The notes beneath the pieces are model-generated. The model made no database searches, had not been told where the DNA came from, and saw nothing but the letters and a program-made list of their open reading frames with translations. DNA of 12,643 bases, taken from IMG/VR virus record IMGVR_UViG_3300032320_002688, positions 64,001-76,643 of that record; one strand, written 5' to 3'. Position 1 is the first letter of the stretch, and every line of letters begins with the position of its first letter. The DNA comes from a virus (lineage: Duplodnaviria > Heunggongvirae > Uroviricota > Caudoviricetes). This document shows positions 1-12,643 of this stretch, in pieces. The translations under genes were made by a program, and so were the position numbers.

Positions 1-2756
1 ACTGCTAAGTTAGCCATAGGATAAGCTGCTCCTTTTACTATATCTTTACCTAATTTAGAGGTATCTACTTTTTCGCCTGCTGCTTTTCTAGATTTAGCAT
101 CACTTATAGTACCAGCAATATTAGAAACTCCTTCAATACCTGCCATAATAGGACCTAAAAATTTGCCTATTACTTTTAAAGAACTTTTAACAGGACCTGC
201 AGCGGCCTCTAAACCAGCAGCACCTGCTTTTTTAATACCACCCCAAGCCCAACCACCAAAACTTTTAAGCCCACCCCATGCTTTACTTAAAAGACTGCCT
301 CCACCTTTCATTAAGCTTGAGCCCATACTTTTAAGTCCACCTAAAGCTTTGCTACCAACACCTTTTATTGAGTTCCATGCTTTTGAAAAAAATCCACCAC
401 CACCGCCACCACCACCACCTTTCGGGGCAGCACTAGGAGCAGCACTTGGTGCTTTAGGAGCTCCACCTGATTTTAAACCTTTAACATCTGAAGCAATATC
501 ACCAGCATCCATTCCTGTTTCCACCATTGCCGCATCATCATCACTCATCATTGATAATCCTAAACTAGAACCTAAACCAAGCAATGCACTACTTCTTCCT
601 CTTCCTCTTCCTCTTATTCTACCACCTCTACTACCTCTACCTCCTCTTCCTCTTCTACCTCTTCTTCCTCTTCTTCCACCTCCACCACCACCAGAGCCAC
701 CATCTCCACCAGACCCACCTCCAACAATATCAACATACGTTGGCCTACTAGGTGATTCACCTCTCTTACCCTTAAATACATTACCAAGATTTCTTATCAA
801 CATCATCCCACCACCTATTAAGGCACCAGCACCTATTACTACACCAAAAAGGCTACCTAATGAACTTACACCAGGTATTGCACCTAAGTAACCCATTATT
901 TTGCCAACAAAACCTAATGCAGATGCTAACCCATCAACCATAGCTCCTAAAGGACCTTCCATTAATGAGGTAAAACCATCTTTCATTTTCTGAACTGATT
1001 CTTCTAATTTCTGTTGGGAACTTACTTGTGCTTTAGATAATTCATAGCTTTTACCAGCTACAATTCCTGCTTCAATGTCGTCGGCTAGTTTTCCTTTGCC
1101 TTCTTTTCTCATCTTAGCAAGCTCATTTTTCTGGTTTGTGCCTATTTTAGCTAATTTTTCTTGCTTAATAAGGGAATTTGCTAATTCATCAGATGTCATA
1201 CCTAATGACTTAGCTAAGGCATCCTGCTGAATTCTATTCATTTGAGTAAATTCAGCTGATCCTTTTACATTTTTAAGTACTTCAGCAGCCGCACCTGCGG
1301 TGTCACCTTGCATTGCTAGATATCTTGCTTGATTTAAGTTAAGATCTTTGCCTATTAATGCTTCTGCTTCATATTCATTAGTTAATGAAGATTCAATATC
1401 AAGAAGTTGATCAGATATGTTTTTAGTTTGTTCTAAAGATAAGCCTAACTTTTGTGATTGAACAACAGCTTGAGCAATTAATTTAGGACTATTTTGATAG
1501 AATAAAGCTAATTGACCTGAGGTTTTAGCTACTTCTTGAATTATTTTTTTATTATTAAGTAAACCTTTGTTTTGTCCGGTAATATCCTTTAATACTTCTT
1601 CCTGACTTTGGCCTTGCAACATAGCATATTCTGAAATTTTAGCAGCTTCATCAGCTTGTAAACCTAAAACATCAGTTAATTCAACTTGTCCTTCAATTAA
1701 TTCAGCACTCATTATAGCTGTGGTGCCCATTGATTCGTTAAGTTGATTATTAGCCTCTAAAGCGCTGTGATTGTTAACACCTAATGCATGTGCGTTAGCA
1801 GCAATATCTCTAGTATAATCAACCATTGCTTTAGCGCCTTGGGCACTTACAGCATAATTCTTTCCAGTGTCGGCTATAGCTTTACTATAGGCCATTCCAA
1901 TATCAAAAAGTGATTTTGCTACTTTATATAATAAAGTTATTTGGACAAGAGGATCTTTTAATGAATTCATTAATCCCTTTCCTATACTTCCTAATCCTGC
2001 TCCTAATACACTCCATTTACTACTACCAGCTTCCTTAGCAGCACTTCTTAAGTCTTTGTTTATATCTTCAAAGTATTTACTTTGAATACCTACTTTTTCA
2101 AAAACTTTAGTAATACCACCCATTATACTTCCGGTAAGACCAAGAGATTTTTGGATGCGTTCTTCTTCTTTTCTTTCCTTTTCAGTTAAAGGAACTATTT
2201 GATTTAAATAACTTATTTTATCTTCTAATGCCTGAGATATTTCATCAGTGTAAGATGATATTTTTTTATATTCTTCTGTTTCTTTAGCTGATGCTTTTCC
2301 ACTTTTTATCTTAGCGGCTAATATATCTGCTTCTGCTTTGGCTTGTTTATAGTTAATGTCTAAAGCTTCTTTTTCCTTTTTAACCTTTTTTTCAAGTTCC
2401 TTTAATTCTTTAACAGTAAGAACATTTTCCTCTTCTCTGTGTTTTTGGAGTTTACCAGCTAAATCCTCTAATTTGTTGAAATTACGAGTTAGTAAGGTTG
2501 AAGTTTTAACACTCCCATTAATATCAGCAACTATATTTTTTAAAGTACTGGCAATGTTTCCAAAAGCATTTCTTAAATCATCAACTTCGCCTTCCATCAA
2601 TTTAATTTGTTTGGTAGCGTCTTGAAGATTATTCCCCAATGCTTGCACAACTTGGTTAACATTTTTAAAACCTTCACCACCCAAACGTTTAATTTCAGCG
2701 TCTAGTTCTTGAATGCGTTTTTTCGCGTTATTTAAGTCTTGTGTATTGTCTGCCAT
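1..2756 (-). CDS. Tail tape measure protein, partial (918 full codons in window; runs off the left edge)
   Basis: ATG at 2756 (MADNTQDLNNAKKRIQELDAEIKRLGG...), and the frame is open to position 1 by my hand translation. It has a long Ala/Glu/Lys/Gln-rich helical N-terminal part, a hydrophobic Gly/Ala/Leu stretch (956..795, GPLGAMVDGLASALGFVGKIMGYLGAIPGVSSLGSLFGVVIGAGALIGGGMMLI) and 11-residue Trp-containing repeats. It sits in the canonical position after sheath, tube and chaperone. Confidence 0.9.
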   Translation of the reverse strand, partial: MADNTQDLNNAKKRIQELDAEIKRLGGEGFKNVNQVVQALGNNLQDATKQIKLMEGEVDDLRNAFGNIASTLKNIVADINGSVKTSTLLTRNFNKLEDLAGKLQKHREEENVLTVKELKELEKKVKKEKEALDINYKQAKAEADILAAKIKSGKASAKETEEYKKISSYTDEISQALEDKISYLNQIVPLTEKERKEEERIQKSLGLTGSIMGGITKVFEKVGIQSKYFEDINKDLRSAAKEAGSSKWSVLGAGLGSIGKGLMNSLKDPLVQITLLYKVAKSLFDIGMAYSKAIADTGKNYAVSAQGAKAMVDYTRDIAANAHALGVNNHSALEANNQLNESMGTTAIMSAELIEGQVELTDVLGLQADEAAKISEYAMLQGQSQEEVLKDITGQNKGLLNNKKIIQEVAKTSGQLALFYQNSPKLIAQAVVQSQKLGLSLEQTKNISDQLLDIESSLTNEYEAEALIGKDLNLNQARYLAMQGDTAGAAAEVLKNVKGSAEFTQMNRIQQDALAKSLGMTSDELANSLIKQEKLAKIGTNQKNELAKMRKEGKGKLADDIEAGIVAGKSYELSKAQVSSQQKLEESVQKMKDGFTSLMEGPLGAMVDGLASALGFVGKIMGYLGAIPGVSSLGSLFGVVIGAGALIGGGMMLIRNLGNVFKGKRGESPSRPTYVDIVGGGSGGDGGSGGGGGGRRGRRGRRGRGGRGSRGGRIRGRGRGRSSALLGLGSSLGLSMMSDDDAAMVETGMDAGDIASDVKGLKSGGAPKAPSAAPSAAPKGGGGGGGGGFFSKAWNSIKGVGSKALGGLKSMGSSLMKGGGSLLSKAWGGLKSFGGWAWGGIKKAGAAGLEAAAGPVKSSLKVIGKFLGPIMAGIEGVSNIAGTISDAKSRKAAGEKVDTSKLGKDIVKGAAYPMANLA
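222..386 (-). repeat. 11-residue amphipathic repeats in the tape measure protein
   Basis: SKAWNSIKGVG / SKALGGLKSMG / SSLMKGGGSLL / SKAWGGLKSFG / GWAWGGIKKAG. An 11-aa period with aromatic anchors is typical of tape measure proteins. Confidence 0.75.
594..722 (-). repeat. Gly-rich linker followed by an RG/RGG low-complexity box in the tape measure protein
   Basis: GGGSGGDGGSGGGGGG then RRGRRGRRGRGGRGSRGGRIRGRGRGR (674..594; 14 Arg and 11 Gly in 27 aa). It appears on the + strand as a pyrimidine-rich cct/ctt tract. Confidence 0.85.
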
Positions 2757-2771: not shown

Positions 2772-2798
2772 TAAGGCACCTAGGGATTAGGTGCCTTA
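2772..2798 (-). terminator. Perfect 11-bp hairpin (terminator-like or processing site)
   Basis: TAAGGCACCTA-5 nt loop-TAGGTGCCTTA. It contains the stop codon of the 2780..3061 frame and is followed by an A/U-rich tail on the minus strand. Confidence 0.65.
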
Positions 2799-3061
2799 TT
2801 TGTAGTAGTATATGCGGTTTTTGGCGCAATATTCGGTCGAGCTATTTCTTTTTTAGAGGTTTGTTGATTGGTCATTATATTGTCGCGCTCGTCTTGTTTT
2901 TCTTTAATTTGATCAAAATGTTCTTTTAATGAATTAAAAGTAAATGTTCTTAACCAAACGGGCATTTCATATACAGTGTGCCAATCATATCCGCCACCCC
3001 CATGAAAAACTATCTCATGTATTGTTTTGAATAGATTAATTCTATATGTTGGCGTCAGGCC
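2780..3061 (-). CDS. Tail chaperone extension (lambda gpT / T4 gp51-like segment), probably reached by frameshift from the upstream chaperone
   Basis: The frame is open from 3076 to the stop at 2780, 32 codons beyond the first ATG at 2965: GLTPTYRINLFKTIHEIVFHGGGGYDWHTVYEMPVWLRTFTFNSLKEHF... It carries an MPxWxR motif like that of gp51-type proteins and lies between the chaperone and tape measure genes. Confidence 0.7.
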   Translation of the reverse strand, partial: GLTPTYRINLFKTIHEIVFHGGGGYDWHTVYEMPVWLRTFTFNSLKEHFDQIKEKQDERDNIMTNQQTSKKEIARPNIAPKTAYTTTNKAPNP

Positions 3062-3836
3062 AAAAAAAGTTAACTCCTATGGAGATTTCTACGCCCTCCT
3101 CTACGTAACCATCAACTTCAATAGTAGTTTTTAAATCAACATCAGGAACAACTTCTTTATAGTATTGTCTAAATGCTCTTAAATCCTTGGCTAAGAAATA
3201 ATTGTCTACGAACTCACGAACTGTTTTTCTATCTGTATCACCATCTACTGATGTGATAATATATTTCATTCTTGTTGATACTTCTGAAGGTGCTGAATTT
3301 ACTTTTTGTAAACCCTTAATTTCACGATCGATTGATTGTTCGTCACCATGAGTTAATGCTTTAAAAGTAACAGTAGTTTTTGTACTTGGTAGAGTAAATT
3401 CAAATGAATTACTACCTTTAGTAATTAAATCTTCTCTTAGTGGTTTGTTTTCTAAAGAAGTTAAGTCAACACTTACTTTTTTAACACCATCCCAATCAGG
3501 ATGTTCATACTCAAATTCATAATCTTTACCATAACCTAAAATACGAGCAGCAATTAATATAGCGTTTTTATCGCCAATTAATAAGTCACTATAGTTGATT
3601 TTAGTAACGAGTAATGATTGAAGTAACTTGTCAATCACAGTACCTTGTCTAAGGTAGTTTTGGTTTGATAAAATATCTTCTTCCTTAGCGGTCATATATT
3701 TTATTTCTACTTTCCCACTTGCTAATGGATTTCCTTCTGGATATAACAATCCTTTAGAGGGTAAGTCAACTATTTCTGTTGGGAATTTAAATTTAGGCTC
3801 TGCAGGGCCTACGTTTGATACATAATCTTGATTCAT
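3042..3836 (-). CDS. Tail assembly chaperone (T4 gp26-like baseplate hub/tail assembly chaperone), 264 aa
   Basis: Motifs VDLPSKGLLY, IKYMTAKEEDIL, LLIGDKNAILIAARILGYG, FEFTLP and terminal NFFWPD. It lies between the tube and tape measure genes. Confidence 0.8.
   Translation of the reverse strand: MNQDYVSNVGPAEPKFKFPTEIVDLPSKGLLYPEGNPLASGKVEIKYMTAKEEDILSNQNYLRQGTVIDKLLQSLLVTKINYSDLLIGDKNAILIAARILGYGKDYEFEYEHPDWDGVKKVSVDLTSLENKPLREDLITKGSNSFEFTLPSTKTTVTFKALTHGDEQSIDREIKGLQKVNSAPSEVSTRMKYIITSVDGDTDRKTVREFVDNYFLAKDLRAFRQYYKEVVPDVDLKTTIEVDGYVEEGVEISIGVNFFWPDANI
3062..3068 (-). other. Candidate slippery site (U7 run; AAC UUU UUU UGG)
   Basis: The run lies in the overlap between the chaperone C-terminus and the +1 frame, which opens just after a TAG at 3079..3077. 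Confidence 0.55.
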
Positions 3837-3858: not shown

Positions 3859-3866
3859 ATAAATAT
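3859..3866 (-). promoter_or_regulatory. ATATTTAT motif upstream of the tail assembly chaperone
   Basis: Recurrent intergenic 8-mer, 22 nt before the ATG. Confidence 0.5.
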
Positions 3867-3892: not shown

Positions 3893-3914
3893 GGCGTTAG
3901 ATTTCTCTAACGCC
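3893..3914 (-). terminator. Intrinsic terminator after the tail tube gene
   Basis: Minus strand GGCGTTAGA-GAAA-TCTAACGCC (9-bp stem, GNRA loop), followed by TTCTTCTTGCTTT. Confidence 0.8.
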
Positions 3915-3939: not shown

Positions 3940-4425
3940 TTAGAAATTCAATATACAGTAATCCATAGCAACTGTTACTGATAAGCTGATCGCAGCATCT
4001 GCTGTCCAATCATAATCACCGAATGTTGCTGTTTTAACGTAAGCACCTTTGATAATCCATTCAGAAACGATATCGCCTACTGGACCTAAGATGTCTAATG
4101 TTAAATCTTTCTTATAAAAATCAGAATAACCATCACGGCCTGTTACTGATTCGTGTGCTAAACGAGCCCACTCCATTACTGCTTGAGCACCTGAAGGAAC
4201 TACTGGATCATAAAGTTCTAAAGTGATATCGTTCCAACGAACTTTACCTTTTACTTTACGGTAAACGTTCATATGGTCTAATATGATTTCACCAGCTTCA
4301 AATCCCGGAGCAGAAGCCTTTTTGATTAAATAAGAAGGGATACCATCCACATATAATATAAAGCGATTCTGAACTTTAGGTTCGAACGCTGTGAACATGA
4401 TTTCGTTCGGGTTTAATACTGCCAT
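3940..4425 (-). CDS. Tail tube protein (T4 gp19-like family), 161 aa
   Basis: FEPKVQNRF, KVKGKVRWNDITLELYDP, WIIKGAY, FGDYDW and VAMDY motifs. Typical size, directly downstream of the sheath gene. Confidence 0.9.
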   Translation of the reverse strand: MAVLNPNEIMFTAFEPKVQNRFILYVDGIPSYLIKKASAPGFEAGEIILDHMNVYRKVKGKVRWNDITLELYDPVVPSGAQAVMEWARLAHESVTGRDGYSDFYKKDLTLDILGPVGDIVSEWIIKGAYVKTATFGDYDWTADAAISLSVTVAMDYCILNF

Positions 4426-4443: not shown

Positions 4444-4451
4444 ATAAATAT
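4444..4451 (-). promoter_or_regulatory. ATATTTAT motif upstream of the tail tube gene
   Basis: Recurrent intergenic 8-mer, 18 nt before the ATG. Confidence 0.5.
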
Positions 4452-4466
4452 TGTTAATTTATTTTC

Positions 4467-6221
4467 TTACGCAAACTGAACACCAGTTGGGGTAATGTTG
4501 AAATCTAGGATAATAAATTCAGCTGTTTTAGTTGGTTGTAAATAAATTGCACCTACTAATTGATTTCTATCAATTGTTTCAGCTGTGTTATTTGATTCGT
4601 CCATTACTACCTTATAAGCATATAAACCTTGTTTTTGTTGTACGTTTTCTAAGTACGGGTTAACTTGGTTTAAGAACTTATTACGAGTTGTTGCTGTATT
4701 TTGTTCGAATACTAAATTATCAGCAATGTTACCAATGTATCTCTTTAATGTGATTAATAAACGACGAACGTTTACACGGTCAAGAGCTGAAGCTTTAGTT
4801 TGTAAAGTCTTTTGACCAAATGCTACAACACCCTGTCCAGGGAAAGTAGCTAATGGGTTAACTTTGTTGATATATAAGTTATCACGATCTGATGGTGATA
4901 ATTTTCTTTCTGCTTGAATTACACCTGATAATCCACCACGGTTGAAACCTGCAGGTGCGAACCATGTTTCTGCTACTTTATCGTTGTAAGCATAAACACC
5001 ACACATTACTGTAGAAGCAGGAACAAATACTAATTTACCAGTTTCTTGAGATAAAACTTGAACCCAAGGCCAGTAAGTAGCACCATATGATGAATCGTAG
5101 CTATTTGCTGCGGTATCAACTGCGGAAATCGGAGCACCATAGTTTACCATATCAACAATTGCCATTGTATCACCTCTGTTTTCACAGTTAGCCATTAATG
5201 TACTTAATACACCAGGACCGTTTTGATAAGTTACACCTGGTAAAGCAACCCATGAATAATCGTATTCATCAGGATTTGAAAGTAAATCTACTACTTCAGT
5301 GTAGTCGCTACTTGATAAACCTTGAATATTAACAGAATCGATTTGGTTAAACATTTTTAATCCTAAAGAAGCACCACTACCATTTCCAAATAAAGGACCT
5401 GTAGCGCCACCAAAAGCACCACCTTCAGATCCTGAACCTACTTGAGGTAAAGAAGCTGTGTATGCAGGATTAAATGTACCGTTGTTTAATAAATAGTTTG
5501 GTGTAGGATTTTGTACATTTTTAACACGTACATATCTACTTTGGTTTACATAAGAACCAGTAACTTGTAATACTAAATTACCATCAACGTCAGTAATTAA
5601 ATTTTGAGATTGGTTACCAATTACATATTCAATATAGTTTGGTGAATTTGGATCTAATGAAAGATTTAACCAAGTTTCAACTACTAATTGTTGGTTTTGA
5701 GTATCATTACCTTGACGTAAGATTAAGTTAAATGTACCTGAACCTGTGTTTACGTTAGTAACGCTCCAACGAATATTATTTGCTGAACCACTAACTAATG
5801 CTTGACCTGATAAGATTGTACCAGCGTTATTCATAATAACACCATCTGAAAGTGTTTCAAGGGAAAATGAAGACGATGCTACGTTTCCACCTATTGTAAG
5901 TACTTGAGATGAAGTTGCTGGTGTGTATCCTGCTGTTGAGCCAGATACTACTCTTGTTACTAATAAAGATTCGCCACCTTGTTGGAAGTAGTTGTATGCA
6001 GCAATTGAGGTTAAATACTCAAGAGTCACACCACCACTAATGAAAGATGCTCCAAATTTATTTTTGTAATCAGAATATGAAGTTACCAATGATGGTACTT
6101 GTACTGGGCCCTTAACTGTAGGGCCAACAATTGCAGCACCAACGGTAATAGGACCTGAAGATACCTGTGATTGATCATTTTCGCGTGTCAATACGCCAGG
6201 AGATAATAAAGTTTCAGCCAT
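4467..6221 (-). CDS. Contractile tail sheath protein, 584 aa
   Basis: N-terminal SPGVxxRExDxS. C-terminal sheath motifs WFAPAGFNRG, FGQKTL, RVNVRRL, VFEQN, NNTAETIDRN and IYLQPTKTAEFIILDF. Confidence 0.95.
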   Translation of the reverse strand: MAETLLSPGVLTRENDQSQVSSGPITVGAAIVGPTVKGPVQVPSLVTSYSDYKNKFGASFISGGVTLEYLTSIAAYNYFQQGGESLLVTRVVSGSTAGYTPATSSQVLTIGGNVASSSFSLETLSDGVIMNNAGTILSGQALVSGSANNIRWSVTNVNTGSGTFNLILRQGNDTQNQQLVVETWLNLSLDPNSPNYIEYVIGNQSQNLITDVDGNLVLQVTGSYVNQSRYVRVKNVQNPTPNYLLNNGTFNPAYTASLPQVGSGSEGGAFGGATGPLFGNGSGASLGLKMFNQIDSVNIQGLSSSDYTEVVDLLSNPDEYDYSWVALPGVTYQNGPGVLSTLMANCENRGDTMAIVDMVNYGAPISAVDTAANSYDSSYGATYWPWVQVLSQETGKLVFVPASTVMCGVYAYNDKVAETWFAPAGFNRGGLSGVIQAERKLSPSDRDNLYINKVNPLATFPGQGVVAFGQKTLQTKASALDRVNVRRLLITLKRYIGNIADNLVFEQNTATTRNKFLNQVNPYLENVQQKQGLYAYKVVMDESNNTAETIDRNQLVGAIYLQPTKTAEFIILDFNITPTGVQFA

Positions 6222-6244: not shown

Positions 6245-6252
6245 ATAAATAT
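6245..6252 (-). promoter_or_regulatory. ATATTTAT motif upstream of the sheath gene
   Basis: Recurrent intergenic 8-mer, 23 nt before the ATG. Confidence 0.5.
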
Positions 6253-6269: not shown

Positions 6270-6539
6270 CTAAGCAACAATAGCTTCTAATGCGCCTGTT
6301 TTTAAATCGATTTTATTATCACCATATTTTTCAGATATACGTTGAGATACTTCATATTCACCCTGTACAACTTGATTAAATTGAAGTTCTAACGTTTGCT
6401 TTTGGGCATCTAAACGTAATTTTTCATATTCAAGTTCGCCCAAGGCATATATTAAACTTTGCTTGGCTTGCTGAAGATCTTTAAGTTCTTTTAATTCTTC
6501 TTCGGTAATTGTGGTTGGTTTGTCTTGTATAATTCCCAT
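6270..6539 (-). CDS. Small coiled-coil protein of unknown function, 89 aa
   Basis: Heptad-like Leu/Gln/Glu helix followed by EKYGDNKIDLKTG. The ATG is 2 nt after the stop of the upstream enzyme, and the gene is on the same strand as its neighbours. Confidence 0.8.
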   Translation of the reverse strand: MGIIQDKPTTITEEELKELKDLQQAKQSLIYALGELEYEKLRLDAQKQTLELQFNQVVQGEYEVSQRISEKYGDNKIDLKTGALEAIVA

Positions 6540-6541
6540 AA

Positions 6542-8968
6542 TTAAAATTCTTTATTTCTCATGAATGAAACAATAATATATCTTTTACCATCTAAAACAG
6601 GGCGAGCGCCGTGTTTATGTGTAATATTTCCTGGATGGACACTTACATAGCCTTGTGGAGGTTTTGATAATTTCTTTTGGCGCCAAAACCAAGTACCACC
6701 ACCAAGATAATCTTCATCTTTTTCAGATAAATTTACTAATGCAGTAATATGTGAATGGTCGTGATGAATACTTAAATGTCCCTGAGTATCTGGTGTATAA
6801 CGTGCTAAAAAGTTTTCAGCAGTTAATTGATCCCAACCTTTGCCTTCCAAACCATATTTGTGTATTGCCATAGGCATAACAAATTCCCAAAGTAAATCAT
6901 AATAAATTTTATCAAACCCAATTTCAGTTAATACGAAATCAGTTGTAGGATAAAATTCATGACGAGCAAAAGTCCATACTTGAGCGTGTTCAGCTTCTTC
7001 AATTATTTTATTACAAAATTCTTTGGTAAACAAAGGATAGACAAAAGCTCCATCAAATTCTTCGTCAACAAATAAATCCCATTCTTTTTTAATTAAGCCA
7101 GGCACTAAAAATTTTCTATGCCATGCAGCAGTGTCGTTCCAGTATTGATATAACTCTGGATGCAACGGGGTATATTCCTTATCCATAATTTTTATTGTAA
7201 GTTTTGGTGTTTCTATTGGTGTTAAATGTATATTTTCTGTTTGTGATTTATTATCTTTTTGTACAACATATTCTATTGTAGTAGCAAATGCGTTTACTTT
7301 ACGATTGTCATGTTTATTTAATAAATCAATTACATCCGTTCTAAAATGAGTATCATATAGTGTAGGTAAAAATTCATCGGTAGGGATTAAATTTTCTTCT
7401 AATTTTTTGCTAATTAATATATCAACTCCATTTTTACTTAAAGCATAAGCATGAGCATTATATGAAAATAAAGGACGAACGAAATAGGCATTATGGTTTT
7501 GTTCAGGTAAATTTCTTATTAAATTTCTACCTAAATGAATTAAATCCCATTTATGTAATGATTGAATTATATCTTGATCAAAAGGTTGAGTAAATGAAAA
7601 ATCTTCTTCTAATATTAATACTGAATCAAATTTGTTTTCATATGCATCTTTCCAACATTTGATGTGAGATAAAACACATCCAATTTCTCCAGGAGTAATA
7701 TCTCGTTGGTGAAACTTAGATTCATCATTAAATTTTTTATCAATTCTATTTTGTTCAAATTCATCTCCTATTTTCCATCCATTCCAAGGTTTAAAATCGA
7801 ATCCTGGATTTGGATTTCTTCCATCAATTCCCTCTATAAAAGCTACTGATTCATATTCAATATTGCTTTCATCTAAACGTTTAAGAGCGTCTTGTTTATA
7901 TTCATCTGTTTTATCAAGTGATATAATATAAACACAATCAAAACTATAACAGCTATCTATAAATGATTTCCATACACACCCAATACGATCTATACTAAAT
8001 ACAGAAGCATATCTTTTATTATATCTTGCTCTATCATCCTGTGCCGGATAATCAATTATTTTAATTATATCAAGATAATATCCTAATTCTTCACCAGGAT
8101 GTTTGATAAATTCAGCAGTATGAATTATTTCTGGAAGTGCACCTATTGGTGATGTTATTATTTTACATCCAGCTAATTGTGCTTCAACAGCAGTTATACA
8201 AAATGTCTCTTCGTATTGGGTTGGGTAAAACCAATATTCTGCTTTGCTATATTCTTGGCGGAGTGTTTTAGTATCAACGTTACCAATAAAATGAACGTCC
8301 TTTAAATTTAGTTTCCTATACGTTTGATTAAATACATCTAAACCGTATTTGGGACAAAATACTTTTAATGTAGCATTTGGTTTTATATCTTTAATATAGT
8401 ACCAAAGTTCAAGTAAAGTATCTAATCCACGTTCAGGGTGTGATGAATATATAAATGAATCTTTTACCTTTTCTTCATCAGTAAAATTTGTTACATCAAC
8501 ACTATTATAAATTATTTTAATTTTATCTAGCGGATAATTATATTTTTCTGCTGTATTTTTTTTATGCCACTCAGAAACGCATATTATACCTGATAGTTTA
8601 GGTAATAAATCTCTACCTTCATTAGGTAAAGTTTCACCTTTATAATAAGGGTAATATTCTGTATTATGTAACCAAAGATAGGTTTTATTATAATCTACTT
8701 TATTTTCTATATCAAGTAAAAAATGTATATAACCTACACCAATTACAACATCATATTTTCTTTTAGTTTTCCAGAGTAATTCTCTATTAATATATTCTAC
8801 TCCATCAACAGACATTTCAGCAACGTCTCCTGTTACATAAACATTAAATTCTTTAGCAAGATATTTTACTGTATTAAGTAGTACCTGTTCGGTTCCACCA
8901 AGTTCTCTATCTATTGGTGAAAATAAGTTATCATAATAACCTATGTGGAATAAAACATTTAATTTCAT
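6542..8968 (-). CDS. Three-domain collagen-modifying enzyme candidate: GT4 glycosyltransferase + COLGALT-like GT25 + PLOD-like lysyl hydroxylase (808 aa from ATG 8968)
   Basis: The ORF track starts at TTG 8992. ATG 8968 lies 1 nt after the upstream TAG and is the more likely start. Three domain signatures are listed separately below. Confidence 0.88.
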   Translation of the reverse strand: MKLNVLFHIGYYDNLFSPIDRELGGTEQVLLNTVKYLAKEFNVYVTGDVAEMSVDGVEYINRELLWKTKRKYDVVIGVGYIHFLLDIENKVDYNKTYLWLHNTEYYPYYKGETLPNEGRDLLPKLSGIICVSEWHKKNTAEKYNYPLDKIKIIYNSVDVTNFTDEEKVKDSFIYSSHPERGLDTLLELWYYIKDIKPNATLKVFCPKYGLDVFNQTYRKLNLKDVHFIGNVDTKTLRQEYSKAEYWFYPTQYEETFCITAVEAQLAGCKIITSPIGALPEIIHTAEFIKHPGEELGYYLDIIKIIDYPAQDDRARYNKRYASVFSIDRIGCVWKSFIDSCYSFDCVYIISLDKTDEYKQDALKRLDESNIEYESVAFIEGIDGRNPNPGFDFKPWNGWKIGDEFEQNRIDKKFNDESKFHQRDITPGEIGCVLSHIKCWKDAYENKFDSVLILEEDFSFTQPFDQDIIQSLHKWDLIHLGRNLIRNLPEQNHNAYFVRPLFSYNAHAYALSKNGVDILISKKLEENLIPTDEFLPTLYDTHFRTDVIDLLNKHDNRKVNAFATTIEYVVQKDNKSQTENIHLTPIETPKLTIKIMDKEYTPLHPELYQYWNDTAAWHRKFLVPGLIKKEWDLFVDEEFDGAFVYPLFTKEFCNKIIEEAEHAQVWTFARHEFYPTTDFVLTEIGFDKIYYDLLWEFVMPMAIHKYGLEGKGWDQLTAENFLARYTPDTQGHLSIHHDHSHITALVNLSEKDEDYLGGGTWFWRQKKLSKPPQGYVSVHPGNITHKHGARPVLDGKRYIIVSFMRNKEF
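6554..7171 (-). other. Domain 3: PLOD-type lysyl hydroxylase (2OG-Fe(II) dioxygenase)
   Basis: YPLFTKEFCNKIIEEAEH, YPTTD, EIGFD, RYTPDTQGHLSIHHDHS, DYLGGG and HPGNITHKHGARPVLDGKRYIIVSF. From recall, these parallel PLOD1 FPIFTEVACDELVEEMEH, VPTID, QIGFE, RYKPDEQPSLMPHHDAS, DYEGGG and [25 protein letters not shown]. Intact Fe ligands are H743, D745 and H794, with 2OG-binding R804 (ORF-track numbering). Confidence 0.88.
7223..7945 (-). other. Domain 2: GT25 glycosyltransferase resembling procollagen galactosyltransferase (COLGALT)
   Basis: FDCVYIISL, EGIDG, ITPGEIGCVLSHIKCWK, LILEED, WDLIHLGR, SYNAHAYALS and IPTDEFLPTLYDTH. From recall, these parallel COLGALT1 FDEVFMINL, EAVDG, LTKGELGCFLSHYNIW, LVFEDD, WDLIYVGR, SYWTLAYVIS and LPVDEFLPVMFDKH. 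Confidence 0.8.
7955..8968 (-). other. Domain 1: GT-B fold family 4 (retaining) glycosyltransferase
   Basis: LGGTE, WLHN, CVSEWH, IYNSVD, YSSHPERGL and the E-x7-E motif ETFCITAVEAQLAG. Confidence 0.85.
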
Positions 8969-8969
8969 A

Positions 8970-9560
8970 CTATTTGTAGCTATCACCTCCAACCCATAAT
9001 ACTAATGATTTACGAGTACCTTGAGTTACTGGAGTTACACGATGTAAAATATAAGAAGGGAATACTAAAACACATCCTTTAATTTTAGGTAATGTTTCTG
9101 GATTTTTTCCTCTTAGAATCTGAAAATCACCTCCTTCATATTCATCATCTCCTGAAAGTTGAACTGTAATACTAATTTTTCTTTGATTTAATGGATATCC
9201 ACCTCCTACGTCTAAGTGATAGTCATAATGACCACCATCTTGATAATACTCAGTGTATTGGACTTGTTCATTCATTCCAGTAAGGGAAAATTTCCAAAGA
9301 GCATTATTTGCTTCGGTAACCATATCGCCTAACTTTTCATAAACCCATTTGTATCTATCAACTTGTGGAATCCATGCTATTGCACTTTTTCTCATTTCAT
9401 TATTTACTACACCAGCATCAGTAATACCAGCAGTAGTTAATCCCCAATTTGTAGATTCAGCAATAATTTGGTCTACTTCTTCACTTGTAAATCCAGTTTT
9501 AAACCAATACCATTCTAAAGGGTCGTGGGCTGTGTTTGATTGCAGTTGAAATTTATACAT
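8970..9560 (-). CDS. 2OG-Fe(II) oxygenase (PKHD-type / prolyl-hydroxylase-like), 196 aa
   Basis: HYDYHLD (HxD), RKISITVQLS, YEGGDF and FPSYILHRVTPVTQGTRKSLVLW (distal His and Arg). Confidence 0.9.
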   Translation of the reverse strand: MYKFQLQSNTAHDPLEWYWFKTGFTSEEVDQIIAESTNWGLTTAGITDAGVVNNEMRKSAIAWIPQVDRYKWVYEKLGDMVTEANNALWKFSLTGMNEQVQYTEYYQDGGHYDYHLDVGGGYPLNQRKISITVQLSGDDEYEGGDFQILRGKNPETLPKIKGCVLVFPSYILHRVTPVTQGTRKSLVLWVGGDSYK

Positions 9561-9583
9561 AACTTAAAATTTATTGTGTGAAT

Positions 9584-9591
9584 ATAAATAT
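9584..9591 (-). promoter_or_regulatory. ATATTTAT motif upstream of the oxygenase/glycosyltransferase cassette
   Basis: Recurrent intergenic 8-mer, 23 nt before the ATG. Confidence 0.5.
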
Positions 9592-9598
9592 AATAAAG

Positions 9599-9622
9599 GA
9601 AGCGACCAACATTGGTCGCTTC
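9599..9622 (-). terminator. Terminator-like hairpin after the fibre gene
   Basis: Minus strand GAAGCGACCA-ATGT-TGGTCGCTTC (10-bp stem), followed by CTTTATTATATTT. Confidence 0.7.
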
Positions 9623-9646
9623 GCTTTTTATCTATTTGTAGTATGT

Positions 9647-10003
9647 TTATCCTACTTTTTCCTTAAGTCTATCTACTTCTGCTTTTAATTCCTTAATAGC
9701 TTCGATTAACAATGGAACGATTTTTTCATACTGAACTGTGCGGAAATTCTCACCTGATTTAGATTTTTCAATTCTATTGCCGTTTTCGTCTTCAACATAT
9801 TCTCTATCGAATGGAGCTAATTTAACCGCTTCTGGTAATATTGCTTCTAATTCGTCTGCGAATACACCGACAATTCTACTTCTTGTATCGTATCCATAGC
9901 TTCCTGCTAATTCGTTATGGGTATAAGTTATACCATTTAACGTTTGTAATTTATCAAGAGCATTTTCAATTACTTTTACATTATCTTTTAATCTTCTATC
10001 TGA
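9647..10003 (-). other. Peptidase_S74 self-cleaving chaperone domain
   Basis: SDRRLK (Ser/Lys i, i+5 dyad), [28 protein letters not shown] and the terminal coiled coil [15 protein letters not shown]. Confidence 0.92.
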
Positions 10004-12643
10004 GTAATAAGCAACGATTTCACCTGATGCTAAGATATCACCTGGAGATCCATAATATCCTAAACCAACACCTAAGGCATTTAATGCTTGGTTTGTTGGG
10101 CCTGGAGGACCTGTTGGGCCTTGTGGACCTTGAGGACCAGGAGCACCTGTACCACCACCAGGGCCTTGAGGACCTGGGGCACCAGTACCACCTGTATTAC
10201 CTTTGTTACCTTGAGCACCTTGAGCACCCTGTGGACCTGTTGGACCAGGAGCACCAACTCCACCACCAGGACCTGTTGGGCCTATTTCACCCTTTTGTCC
10301 TTTAGCACCTGTACCACCACCAGGACCTGTTGGACCTACGTTACCTTGAGGACCTGTTGGACCAGGAGAACCAGTATTACCTTTGTTACCTTGAGGGCCT
10401 TGAGCACCTGTTGGACCTACGTTACCTTGGGCACCAACTTCACCTTTTTGGCCTTTAGCACCTTGAGGACCTGTAGCACCTTGAGGACCTACGTTACCTT
10501 GAGGACCTGTTGCTCCTGGAGCACCTGTTGGACCTACGTTACCTTGAGGACCGGTTGAGCCTATTTCCCCCTTTTGTCCTTTAGCACCTTGAGGACCTGT
10601 TGGACCAGGAGAACCTGTTGGACCTACGTTACCTTGAGGACCTGTTGGACCTGGAGAACCTGTAGCACCCGTTGCACCTTTAGCACCTGCATTACCTTGA
10701 GGGCCAGGACCACCTGTTGGACCTGTAGGACCAGTTGAACCAGTATTACCTTTTGCACCTTGAGGACCTTGAGGACCTGTTGGACCTAAGTTACCTTTTG
10801 CACCTTGTGGACCTGTTGGACCTACGTTACCTTGAGGACCTGTAGCACCTTGAGCTCCAGTATTACCTTTAGCACCTTGAGCACCTTGAGCACCTTGTGG
10901 ACCAGGAGCACCTGTACCACCTTGAGCACCTGTAGCACCCTTAACACCTTGAGGACCTGTAGGACCTGTTGGGCCTAAATCACCTTTTGCACCTGTTGGA
11001 CCTGTTGGACCTACGTTACCTTGAGGACCTGTAGAACCAGTAGAACCTTTAGCACCAGTATTACCTTGTGGACCAGGAGCACCTGTAGCACCTGAAGAAC
11101 CACTTGTGCCTGATGAACCTGAAGTTCCGTTAGCACCTGCGTTACCTTGAGCACCTTGAGGTCCAGGAGCACCTGTATTACCTTTAGCACCTGTATTACC
11201 TTGAGGACCTGTAGCGCCTGATGTGCCTGAAGATCCACTTGAACCTGATGTACCTGATGAACCACTATTACCTACTTCACCTTTTTGTCCTTTAGCACCT
11301 TGAGGACCTGTAGCACCTGAAGTACCACTTGAACCTGATGTACCGCTTGAACCTGATGAACCTGATGTTCCTGATGAACCTGATGAACCTGATGTTCCTG
11401 ATGAACCACTTGTTCCACTTGAACCTGATGATCCTGAAGTTCCGCTTGAACCTGAAGTTCCGCTTGAACCTGATGATCCTGAAGTTCCGCTTGAACCAGA
11501 TGAGCCTGATGTTCCTGAAGAACCAGATGTACCTGATGAACCAGATGAACCTGAAGATCCACTTGAACCTGAAGTTCCAGATGAACCAGAAGTTCCTGAT
11601 GTACCACTTGAACCCGAGCTACCTGAAGTGCCTGATGAGCCACTTGAACCAGATGAACCTGATGTACCTGAAGAACCAGATGAACCTGAGCTACCTGAAG
11701 TTCCACTTGCACCGTCTATTCCACTTGTACCACTTGTACCACTTGAACCTGATGTTCCTGAAGAACCTGATGTACCACTAGTTCCTGAAGAACCTGATGT
11801 ACCACTTGAACCTGAAGTTCCTGATGAACCTGACGTACCATTAGTTCCTGATGATCCACTTGAACCTGATGTTCCACTTGTTCCCGAAGAACCGCTTGTT
11901 CCACTCGTTCCATTTGTGCCAGAAGTACCATTTGTTCCTGATGAACCTGAGGTTCCTGAAGTACCATTTGTTCCTGAAGAACCTGAAGTTCCACTTGTAC
12001 CAGACGTTCCGTTTGTTCCAGAAGTACCTGAGGTTCCGCTGGTTCCTGAAGTTCCATCTGTACCACTTGTTCCTGACGAACCTGAAGTTCCTGAAGAACC
12101 ACTAGTTCCTGAAGTTCCACTTGTACCAGACGTTCCGTTTGTTCCAGAAGTACCTGAGGTTCCGCTGGTTCCTGAAGTTCCATCTGTACCACTTGTTCCT
12201 GACGAACCTGAAGTTCCTGAAGTTCCTGAAGAACCACTAGTTCCTGAAGTTCCGTCTGTACCACTTGTTCCTGACGAACCTGAAGTTCCTGACGAACCTG
12301 AAGTTCCTGAAGAACCTGAAGTTCCTGATGAACCACTTGTTCCTGATGATCCACTTGTTCCTGATGTACCATCTGTTCCACTAGTTCCTGATGAACCTGA
12401 AGTACCACTTGTTCCTGAAGAACCACTTGTTCCAGACGTTCCATTAGTTCCTGATGAACCACTTGTTCCTGATGTACCATCTGTTCCACTAGTTCCTGAT
12501 GAACCTGAAGTACCACTAGTTCCTGAAGAACCACTTGTTCCTGATGAACCACTTGAACCTGAAGTTCCACTAGTTCCTGATGTTCCGTCTGTACCACTAG
12601 TTCCTGATGAACCACTTGTTCCTGATGAACCACTTGTTCCTGA
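9647..12643 (-). CDS. Giant collagen-like fibre protein with C-terminal Peptidase_S74 intramolecular chaperone, partial (998 aa in window; start lies beyond the right edge)
   Basis: The frame from 12643 (S-GTS-GSS...) to TAA at 9649..9647 is exactly 999 codons. Gly codons stay in 9-nt phase at 12640, 11317, 11281 and 10102. The protein ends ...[44 protein letters not shown]...[27 protein letters not shown]. Confidence 0.93.
10094..11317 (-). repeat. Pro/Lys-containing collagen triple-helix repeat, 136 Gly-X-Y triplets
   Basis: Hand translation: GPQ, GPT, GAT, GNV, GAP and GAK triplets without interruption. GAKGQKGE[VI] occurs four times. Confidence 0.95.
11982..12222. repeat. Perfect 115-bp direct repeat, period 126 bp
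   Basis: 11982..12096 is identical to 12108..12222, including rare synonymous codons. Confidence 0.85.
12351..12541. repeat. 83-bp direct repeat with 1 mismatch, period 108 bp
   Basis: 12351..12433 versus 12459..12541, differing only at 12410/12518. Confidence 0.8.

Follow-up and report, generated by a model that had tools for sequence, protein, structure and literature searches.

A collagen-like tail fibre and a predicted lysine-modifying fusion enzyme encoded side by side in an uncultured tailed phage

The terminal 12.6 kb of the 76.6-kb IMG/VR record IMGVR_UViG_3300032320_002688 (the window hereafter: 12,643 nucleotides, positions 64,001 to 76,643 of a record whose completeness is estimated at 46%) covers the tail-fibre and tail genes of an uncultured myovirus. 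Every gene of the window lies on the minus strand, and the reading order is a tail fibre, an 86-nt spacer, a small 2-oxoglutarate (2OG)-Fe(II) oxygenase, a fusion enzyme, a coiled-coil gene, then the sheath, the tube, a hub-like gene, a 61-amino acid (aa) open reading frame (ORF) and the tape measure (Table 1). The fibre is collagen-like. The fusion enzyme combines two glycosyltransferase (GT) domains, from families GT4 and GT25, with a lysyl hydroxylase (LH) domain, and it probably modifies the lysines of the fibre, as already proposed in a preliminary description of this DNA.

The fibre and the enzymes encoded beside it

The fibre ORF lacks its 5' end, the virus record stopping there. It matches the Pfam Collagen family (PF01391, E 7e-116) and PHROG tail-fibre families (E 1e-132). 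The preliminary description had counted at least 283 Gly-X-Y triplets; there are exactly 283, uninterrupted, from residue 2 to residue 850. The combination of a long Gly-X-Y repeat and a trimerisation domain predicts a collagen triple helix. The repeat is made of two blocks. The first is devoid of proline and lysine and contains no predicted LH acceptor site; its GTS and GSS triplets make it a possible target of Ser/Thr O-glycosylation. The distal block (GPQ, GPT, GAK, GQK and similar triplets) carries all 18 lysines of the fibre, every one of them at position Y, as well as 47 prolines at X and 12 at Y.

In close relatives the Lys/Pro block always comes last and holds 24–25 Y-lysines, even though the fibres range from 256 to 614 triplets. 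Full-length relatives also reveal the N-terminus that is missing from the window, which consists of a 105-aa head domain followed by multiple GTS/GSS collagen blocks. In these relatives the GTS/GSS blocks are interrupted by repeated globular inserts of ~80 aa (loci L013:585-7922, L006:5417-9331 and L003:2-4420), which share the conserved pattern ...SYNS..G.L.F...GSGTY..W..NLD and form an uncharacterised 'knot' domain within the collagen fibre.

The fibre ends with an S74 domain, which had been described as a self-cleaving C-terminal domain. The match to PF13884 and the SDRRLK motif with its Ser-Lys dyad support this assignment at the sequence level. The motif aligns with SSDRRIK in the long-tail-fibre protein gp37 of phage S16 (PDB 6f45), and also with MYRF.

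The fusion gene starts at the ATG at 8968 and not at the TTG at 8992 retained by the ORF list, because its homologues begin at the ATG. The three-domain architecture proposed for this gene after the fibre is confirmed by Pfam domains, by homology with PLOD3, mimivirus L230 and COLGALT1, and by the intact catalytic residues. The last 210 residues match human LH3/PLOD3 (E 2.4e-27) and L230 (E 3e-24), and the sequence of this domain matches no other 2OG oxygenase of solved structure. The LH domain also matches PF25238, with PF13640 just under its cut-off. In the AlphaFold model of the fusion (pLDDT 84.6) it superposes on L230 (6ax6, Foldseek) with a TM-score of 0.89, a root-mean-square deviation (rmsd) of 1.9 Å and 30% identity. 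Its four ligands align, in order, with H667, D669, H719 and R729 of PLOD3, which bind Fe and 2OG, and they do not vary among 20 homologues, the most distant of which is 32% identical.

The GT25 domain matches PF01755 (66.3 bits for a cut-off of 24). By sequence, its sole match of solved structure is COLGALT1 (E 3.7e-15, residues 358-493), over the catalytic GT2 domain; the structural match is 9evk_B, with 24% identity and an rmsd of 3.1 Å. E454 and D456 align with the Mn-chelating residues Glu435 and Asp437 of COLGALT1 and both are invariant, while the middle Asp of the motif is a Glu here. The GT4 domain matches PF00534, PF13439 and PF13692 above cut-off, its EX7E motif is invariant, and its structural matches are MshA, tll1591 and BshA (TM-score ~0.7). 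When cultured phages were searched with the full-length fusion (tblastn), only domain-sized pieces were found.

The gene between the spacer and the fusion had been read as a 2OG-Fe(II) oxygenase, and it matches PF13640 with 51.5 bits (cut-off 27). Its HxD...H...R ligands are invariant among the homologues compared. The best structural neighbours of the model (pLDDT 89) are PHD-type prolyl 4-hydroxylases (P4Hs; TM-score 0.70–0.73) and PiuC; collagen-type P4Hs are absent from the best 50 structural matches. The oxygenase and fusion genes are 1 nt apart, and 2 nt separate the fusion from the 89-aa gene, as had been noted.

Table 1. Position of the features of the window (all coordinates refer to the 12,643-nucleotide stretch)
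Feature	Position	Strand	Description
Collagen-like tail fibre gene	9647..12643	-	Gly-X-Y repeat, 30-aa linker, S74 chaperone
Pro/Lys-free collagen block	11318..12643	-	triplets 0-146 (first 147), almost all GTS/GSS
Distal collagen block, predicted substrate region	10094..11317	-	triplets 147-282 (last 136)
S74 intramolecular chaperone / autoprotease domain	9647..10003	-	PF13884, aa 881-941, 45.7 bits, cut-off 22
SDRRLK dyad	Ser881 at 10003..10001, Lys886 at 9988..9986	-	intact Ser-Lys dyad
Terminator-like hairpin	9599..9622	-	10-bp stem, 6 GC pairs, T-rich tail, after fibre gene
ATATTTAT motif	9584..9591	-	~24 nt before oxygenase start; candidate late-promoter element
Small 2OG-Fe(II) oxygenase, 196 aa	8970..9560	-	PHD-type fold; ligands H115, D117, H173, R183
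Fusion, 808 aa, GT4 + GT25 + LH	6542..8968	-	Pfam, homology, structure model
GT4 domain (GT-B, retaining-type)	7949..8968	-	EX7E motif E254...E262
GT25 domain	7289..7936	-	homologue of COLGALT1 catalytic GT2 domain; metal motif E454-E455-D456
PLOD/L230-type LH domain	6545..7183	-	ligands H735, D737, H786, R796
89-aa coiled-coil gene	6270..6539	-	tail module, outside modification cassette
Sheath	4467..6221	-	Pfam/PHROG
Tube	3940..4425	-	Pfam/PHROG
Baseplate-hub-like gene	3042..3836	-	PF12322, phrog_150
61-aa ORF	2780..2965	-	between hub-like gene and tape measure
Tape measure ORF	3..2756	-	tail module

Conservation of the pairing and distribution of lysine

IMG/VR was scanned three times, with alignments of the architectures GT4+GT25+LH, GT4+LH and GT25+LH, and 301, 296 and 223 contigs were confirmed, respectively, in sets which overlap. 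The three-domain loci were counted when at least 3 kb of upstream DNA was available, and clades were defined at 70% identity. The neighbourhood survey suggested in the preliminary description, about the co-occurrence of enzyme and collagen, upholds the pairing; homologues of the enzyme do not mostly lack a nearby collagen. Indeed, 47 of the 50 three-domain loci (10 of 11 informative clades) have a large same-strand collagen ORF whose end lies 41–1952 nt upstream of the enzyme, and all the GT4+LH loci with sufficient upstream DNA have a same-strand upstream collagen (56/56). In the downstream flank, which served as an internal control, no locus has a collagen ORF. The upstream linkage persists between enzymes as little as 32% identical and is seen in two genome types or more. 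This arrangement of fibre and enzyme is far beyond chance.

For the exceptional three-domain clade (L072, L075 and L076), the 142-kb record contains three collagen genes at other positions. Two genomes of 55–58 kb (98–100% complete) carry the enzyme and collagen genes at opposite ends of the contig, and these genes would adjoin if the genome were circular or circularly permuted. The GT25+LH clades are mixed, five of them having a collagen 1.8–8.5 kb upstream. The module is mainly viral: cellular relatives of the enzyme were found in 8 of ~185,000 species genomes, all but one labelled as metagenome-assembled genomes (MAGs). The bacterial homologues (L235-L240, on MAG contigs and an Aliishimia chromosome) are 47–55% identical in the best segment.

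The collagens that are linked to the enzyme have a distinctive lysine content. The linked set consists of 85 non-redundant collagens (19,695 triplets), and the control consists of 117 viral collagen loci sampled arbitrarily by a GGN-periodic DNA pattern, 114 of which have no enzyme in the locus. In the linked set, 4743 lysines are at Y versus 65 at X, and arginine does not show such a bias towards Y (176 at Y, 233 at X). The median Gly-X-Lys content is 26.6% in linked collagens versus 0% in the control (n = 114; Mann-Whitney p 4e-19), and the odds ratio of Lys at Y over X between the two sets is 13. Another control used the S74 domain as bait: 45 of 48 non-redundant related fibres have no collagen, and the enzyme accompanies none of them; the other three have a collagen with 0–1 Lys, and no enzyme. 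As for GT4, the locus table does not show a clear pattern between its presence and Ser/Thr-rich collagen.

In a tree of LH domains, the window sequence falls within a well-supported clade (97/95) together with GT4+LH enzymes, and the three-domain state requires at least four gains or losses. In GT4+LH loci such as L097, a separate 432-aa gene of the GT2 family (L097:8694-9992) lies between the small oxygenase and the enzyme, in place of the fused GT25. A related module is present in a cultured phage, Synechococcus phage S-8S55 (OQ504983.1, 23411-31184; loci L318 / L319), which encodes a collagen/S74 fibre, two small 2OG oxygenases and a fusion. The fibre has 55 triplets, 24 Y-lysines, no X-lysine and an S74 domain with SDRRLK. 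The fusion (WLW37668, 621 aa) consists of a GT25 domain, a PLOD-type GT and an LH-like domain, and is labelled in the record only as '2OG-Fe(II) oxygenase superfamily domain containing protein'. S-PRM1 and S-CAM9 were also matched by tblastn, in the GT25 region. A set of one LH and two glycosyltransferases thus recurs in the window, in L097 and in S-8S55, with GT families being exchanged, which hints at a product carrying two sugars.

Genomic setting, proposed pathway and alternatives

The genes that follow the cassette belong to the tail. Sheath, tube and tape measure are as first described; the gene called a chaperone is not one by its matches, which are to the T4 baseplate-hub family. The 61-aa ORF matches no family and occupies the position expected for a tail assembly chaperone. 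The tape measure's C-terminal portion (window 3-900) is a long low-complexity stretch of Gly, Arg and Ser, with poly-Gly runs and RGR repeats; its GC content of up to 42% and strong negative GC skew are unusual for a tape measure. The 89-aa coiled-coil gene, initially counted within the cassette, is a tail-module gene. A homologue (27% identical, E 9e-8) precedes the sheath gene of Flavobacterium phage vB_FspM_immuto, the nearest cultured phage by its sheath protein (50% identity), which has ordinary fibres at this locus and lacks both the collagen and the modifying enzymes. In distant loci also, the coiled-coil gene accompanies the sheath gene and not the enzyme. No DNA near-identical to that of the window was found among INPHARED phages.

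The fibre gene and the cassette are not joined: the 86-nt spacer between them holds a terminator-like hairpin and a ATATTTAT motif. This motif occurs five times on the minus strand (2764-2771, 3859-3866, 4444-4451, 6245-6252 and 9584-9591); all copies are intergenic, on the coding strand, and precede the tape-measure, hub, tube, sheath and oxygenase genes. At least five copies were obtained in just 7 of 200 shuffles, a test of copy number only that leaves position aside, and the motif may represent a late-promoter element in this group of phages. Strong GC-rich intergenic hairpins with T-rich tails (2772-2798, 3893-3914 and 9599-9622) each lie just upstream of a ATATTTAT copy; in the region, 11 terminator-like sites are observed for 2.6 expected. 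A hairpin closes the fibre gene and the motif before the cassette is common to the tail genes, which suggests that the fibre and the cassette are transcribed separately but at the same late time.

The following pathway can be proposed. Late in infection, a very long collagen-like chain would be made. Before the triple helix zips up, the C-terminal PLOD/L230-type domain of the fusion would hydroxylate the Y-lysines of the distal block (Gly-X-Lys-Gly), and the GT25 domain would then attach a hexose to the hydroxyl so formed. The GT4 domain is probably responsible for a second sugar; it could alternatively glycosylate another site. The S74 domain would trimerise the chains and set their register, then cleave itself off at Ser881, which would leave a fibre tip made of almost pure decorated collagen. 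The decoration may contribute to the stability of the fibre, to shielding from proteases or to receptor binding.

The claim that the phage hydroxylates and glycosylates its own fibre lysines gains support from synteny, from the specific homology and from the Lys-free and non-collagen controls, and it is likely that the fusion enzyme acts on these lysines. The recurrence of the pairing in hundreds of phage contigs suggests that phages probably modify their own collagen. A number of observations weigh against this reading. A terminator-like hairpin stands between the fibre gene and the enzymes. Viral collagens in general have more Lys at Y than at X (484:89 in the control), so that the 18:0 of the window is weak on its own, and the p-values are optimistic since the loci are not phylogenetically independent. 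The window fibre is Lys-poor for its class (6.4% overall, 13% in the distal block). The expectation that a Lys-rich collagen predicts the enzyme was not significant in an independent sample: an LH is detectable in 1 of 9 Lys-rich phage records versus 0 of 7 Lys-free ones, and two of the Lys-rich records lacking it are at least 95% complete. This search did not reach four loci, dealt largely with fragmentary records and used a single-sequence query, by which a divergent LH may be overlooked. Six of the GT25+LH clades lack a collagen within 10 kb; in three of five such records, all fragmentary, collagens are present elsewhere. None of the eight loci in bacterial genomes has one within 10 kb, even with a threshold of four triplets; collagen genes are present elsewhere in all five of these bacterial genomes that were searched. 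The donor sugar of the fusion cannot be read from GT25 homology, because the homologous GT25-like domain of L230 uses UDP-Glc and adds Glc, not Gal (PMC9614988).

The clades without a nearby collagen and the bacterial homologues fit a different proposal, in which the fusion modifies host envelope glycans such as lipopolysaccharide (LPS), or another protein of the virion or the host, and lies beside collagen owing to the plasticity of the host-recognition region. Source annotations of the homologues point the same way ('GR25 family glycosyltransferase involved in LPS biosynthesis / cell wall biosynthesis'), and the glycosyltransferases of this region have been read as O-antigen modifiers in the pelagimyophage literature (PMC7029224). 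However, a role in LPS leaves unexplained why a PLOD-type protein lysyl hydroxylase is fused to the glycosyltransferases, why a same-strand collagen lies immediately upstream down to 32% enzyme identity and never downstream, why the linked collagens are specifically rich in Lys at Y, and why the enzyme is absent beside non-collagen fibres with a related S74 domain. We consider this proposal improbable. It is still far less probable that the oxygenase and glycosyltransferase genes hypermodify the phage DNA by hydroxylation and then glycosylation of bases, as in base J or glucosyl-hydroxymethyl pyrimidines, even if pairs of 2OG oxygenases and glycosyltransferases can modify DNA in T4-like phages. 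The solved relatives of the oxygenase domain are LH3 and L230 (E 1e-24 to 1e-27, TM-score 0.89), and TET/JBP and 5mYOX are not among the matches; the genes are within a structural module, behind a motif common to late tail genes, and DNA modification offers no explanation for covariation with collagen Lys content.

The function of the small oxygenase is a separate question. Animal-style Pro 4-hydroxylation, which the preliminary description listed among the steps of animal collagen maturation, is doubtful here. A collagen P4H acts on Y-proline, so an oxygenase of this kind should co-occur with it, and this is not observed (p 0.88): Y-Pro is found in only 335 of 19,695 linked triplets (1.7%), and L013, an 80%-identical relative which retains the oxygenase, has none in 614 triplets. 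Y-proline was therefore rejected as the target. X-proline does track the oxygenase, with a median of 20.8% in its presence versus 1.6% in its absence (p 0.006; 37 versus 5 clusters). If the oxygenase modifies the fibre, proline at X is thus a more likely target than proline at Y.

Whether it does so at all is, in our estimation, an even call. The competing idea, that it is a general phage auxiliary oxygenase, like the many 2OG-Fe(II) oxygenases of unknown target in cyanophages and pelagiphages, which happens to sit in a hypervariable fibre region, is a serious one, to which we give slightly less than an even chance. Homologues that are 32–38% identical exist in 359 cultured phage records (tblastn), mostly adjoining the uvsW helicase, and no LH-domain match was found in these genomes. 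The PHROG class of the oxygenase is phrog_61, 'moron / auxiliary metabolic gene', and its best solved relatives target EF-Tu, HIF or unknown substrates and not collagen; many linked collagens, moreover, are nearly devoid of Y-proline. On the other hand, most clades keep the oxygenase beside the LH enzyme, even though it shifts from a position before the enzyme to one after it. The collagen-linked oxygenases are 41–52% identical to one another and more distant from the cyanophage genes. The loci without oxygenase have collagens poor in X-Pro, including within clades (L061 compared with L065/L066/L073, and L037 with L039/L041).

A different family of small 2OG oxygenases, 17–24% identical to that of the window and with extra inserts, directly follows the enzyme in a GT25+LH clade without adjacent collagen (L174:1310-1855, L175:11457-12044, L179:11436-12017, L180:7196-7765 and L181:3136-3735).

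To our knowledge, the glycosylation of hydroxylysine in collagen is regarded as a trait of animals, L230 of mimivirus being the lone example outside animals. Modification of the fibre lysines by the fusion, if true, would make collagen lysine chemistry common in aquatic viruses, bear on the origin of the PLOD and COLGALT enzymes and bring a post-translational layer into host recognition by phages and the stability of their fibres. Compact single-chain enzymes, expressible in bacteria, would also become available for the production of hydroxylated and glycosylated recombinant collagen. The question is directly testable, since a related module exists in cultured cyanophages. A bolder picture, which we find rather unlikely, is that tailed phages of aquatic bacteria routinely build fibres of hydroxylysine collagen decorated with disaccharides, by means of a modular kit (a PLOD-type LH, two interchangeable glycosyltransferases and a prolyl-hydroxylase-like oxygenase with a preference for X-Pro), the tip left by S74 cleavage being an adhesive or receptor-binding surface. 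In that case the 'animal' chemistry of collagen lysines, instead of being a speciality of animals and giant viruses, would extend widely through the virosphere of prokaryotes and might be ancient there.

Comparison with known systems

The literature searched does not describe any lysyl hydroxylase/glycosyltransferase of phages that acts on collagen, subscription journals being outside the scope of the search. According to a review from 2022, bacteriophage collagens are short and prokaryotic collagens are mostly free of such modifications (PMC8968730). Iyer et al. predicted in 2010 that dioxygenases modify bacterial collagen-like proteins, with other enzyme families (PMC2938197).

The closest characterised system is L230 from Acanthamoeba polyphaga mimivirus (PDB 6ax6, 9nev), which hydroxylates and glucosylates viral collagen and is active when it is expressed in E. 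coli (PMC9614988, PMC9546862). Like the window enzyme, it joins a C-terminal LH to a GT25-like domain that transfers sugar, in one chain, and its substrates are collagen-like proteins of its own virus, rich in Gly-X-Lys (PMC9614988). L230 comes from a giant virus of amoebae and has 895 aa, a long middle region and no GT4. The window fusion, in contrast, belongs to a tailed bacteriophage, is more compact, has an additional N-terminal GT4 and is encoded beside its presumed tail-fibre substrate.

Animal LH3 and COLGALT1 come next (PMC12003778). The LH and GT25 domains of human LH3/PLOD3 and COLGALT1/GLT25D1 (6fxk, 9evj, 8zgc) are homologous to those of the fusion, with the same Fe and 2OG ligands and the Glu-x-Asp metal ligands. 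The animal pathway converts Lys into hydroxylysine (Hyl), then Gal-Hyl, then Glc-Gal-Hyl, and the predicted acceptor in the window is likewise a Lys at Y. In animals the activities are carried by two proteins which form a complex in the endoplasmic reticulum, with LH3 using its GT-A domain to attach the second sugar, whereas the window encodes a single cytoplasmic polypeptide whose second glycosyltransferase is an unrelated GT-B (GT4). The COLGALT1 GT1 domain and the LH3 accessory domain are absent from the fusion.

Among prokaryotic proteins, BclA, the exosporium collagen of Bacillus anthracis, is a collagen-like filament, as is the window fibre, and is known to be glycosylated. Its sugars are carried by Thr of GXT repeats and not by hydroxylysine; no lysyl hydroxylase is involved, and neither PLOD nor COLGALT is related to the enzymes. 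B. anthracis also has a P4H-type prolyl 4-hydroxylase, for which both the X and the Y positions of collagen peptides can serve as targets (PMC8968730).

The S74 fibres and spikes of other phages (K1F endosialidase, T5 pb1, S16 gp37) end with the same Ser-Lys dyad, in a C-terminal domain which trimerises and then releases itself. Unlike them, the window fibre and many of its relatives have the S74 domain directly after the collagen helix, with only ~30 residues in between, so its role would resemble that of a procollagen C-propeptide and not that of a folding aid for a β-helix.

The cultured phage S-8S55 (Kanaloavirus) has the same succession as the window: a collagen/S74 fibre, then the small oxygenases, then a GT25/GT/LH-like fusion. 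Its second glycosyltransferase is a PLOD-type GT-A (PF25342, E 4.5e-48) where the window has a GT4, its LH-like domain is merely 25% identical to that of the window enzyme, and its collagen segment is short.

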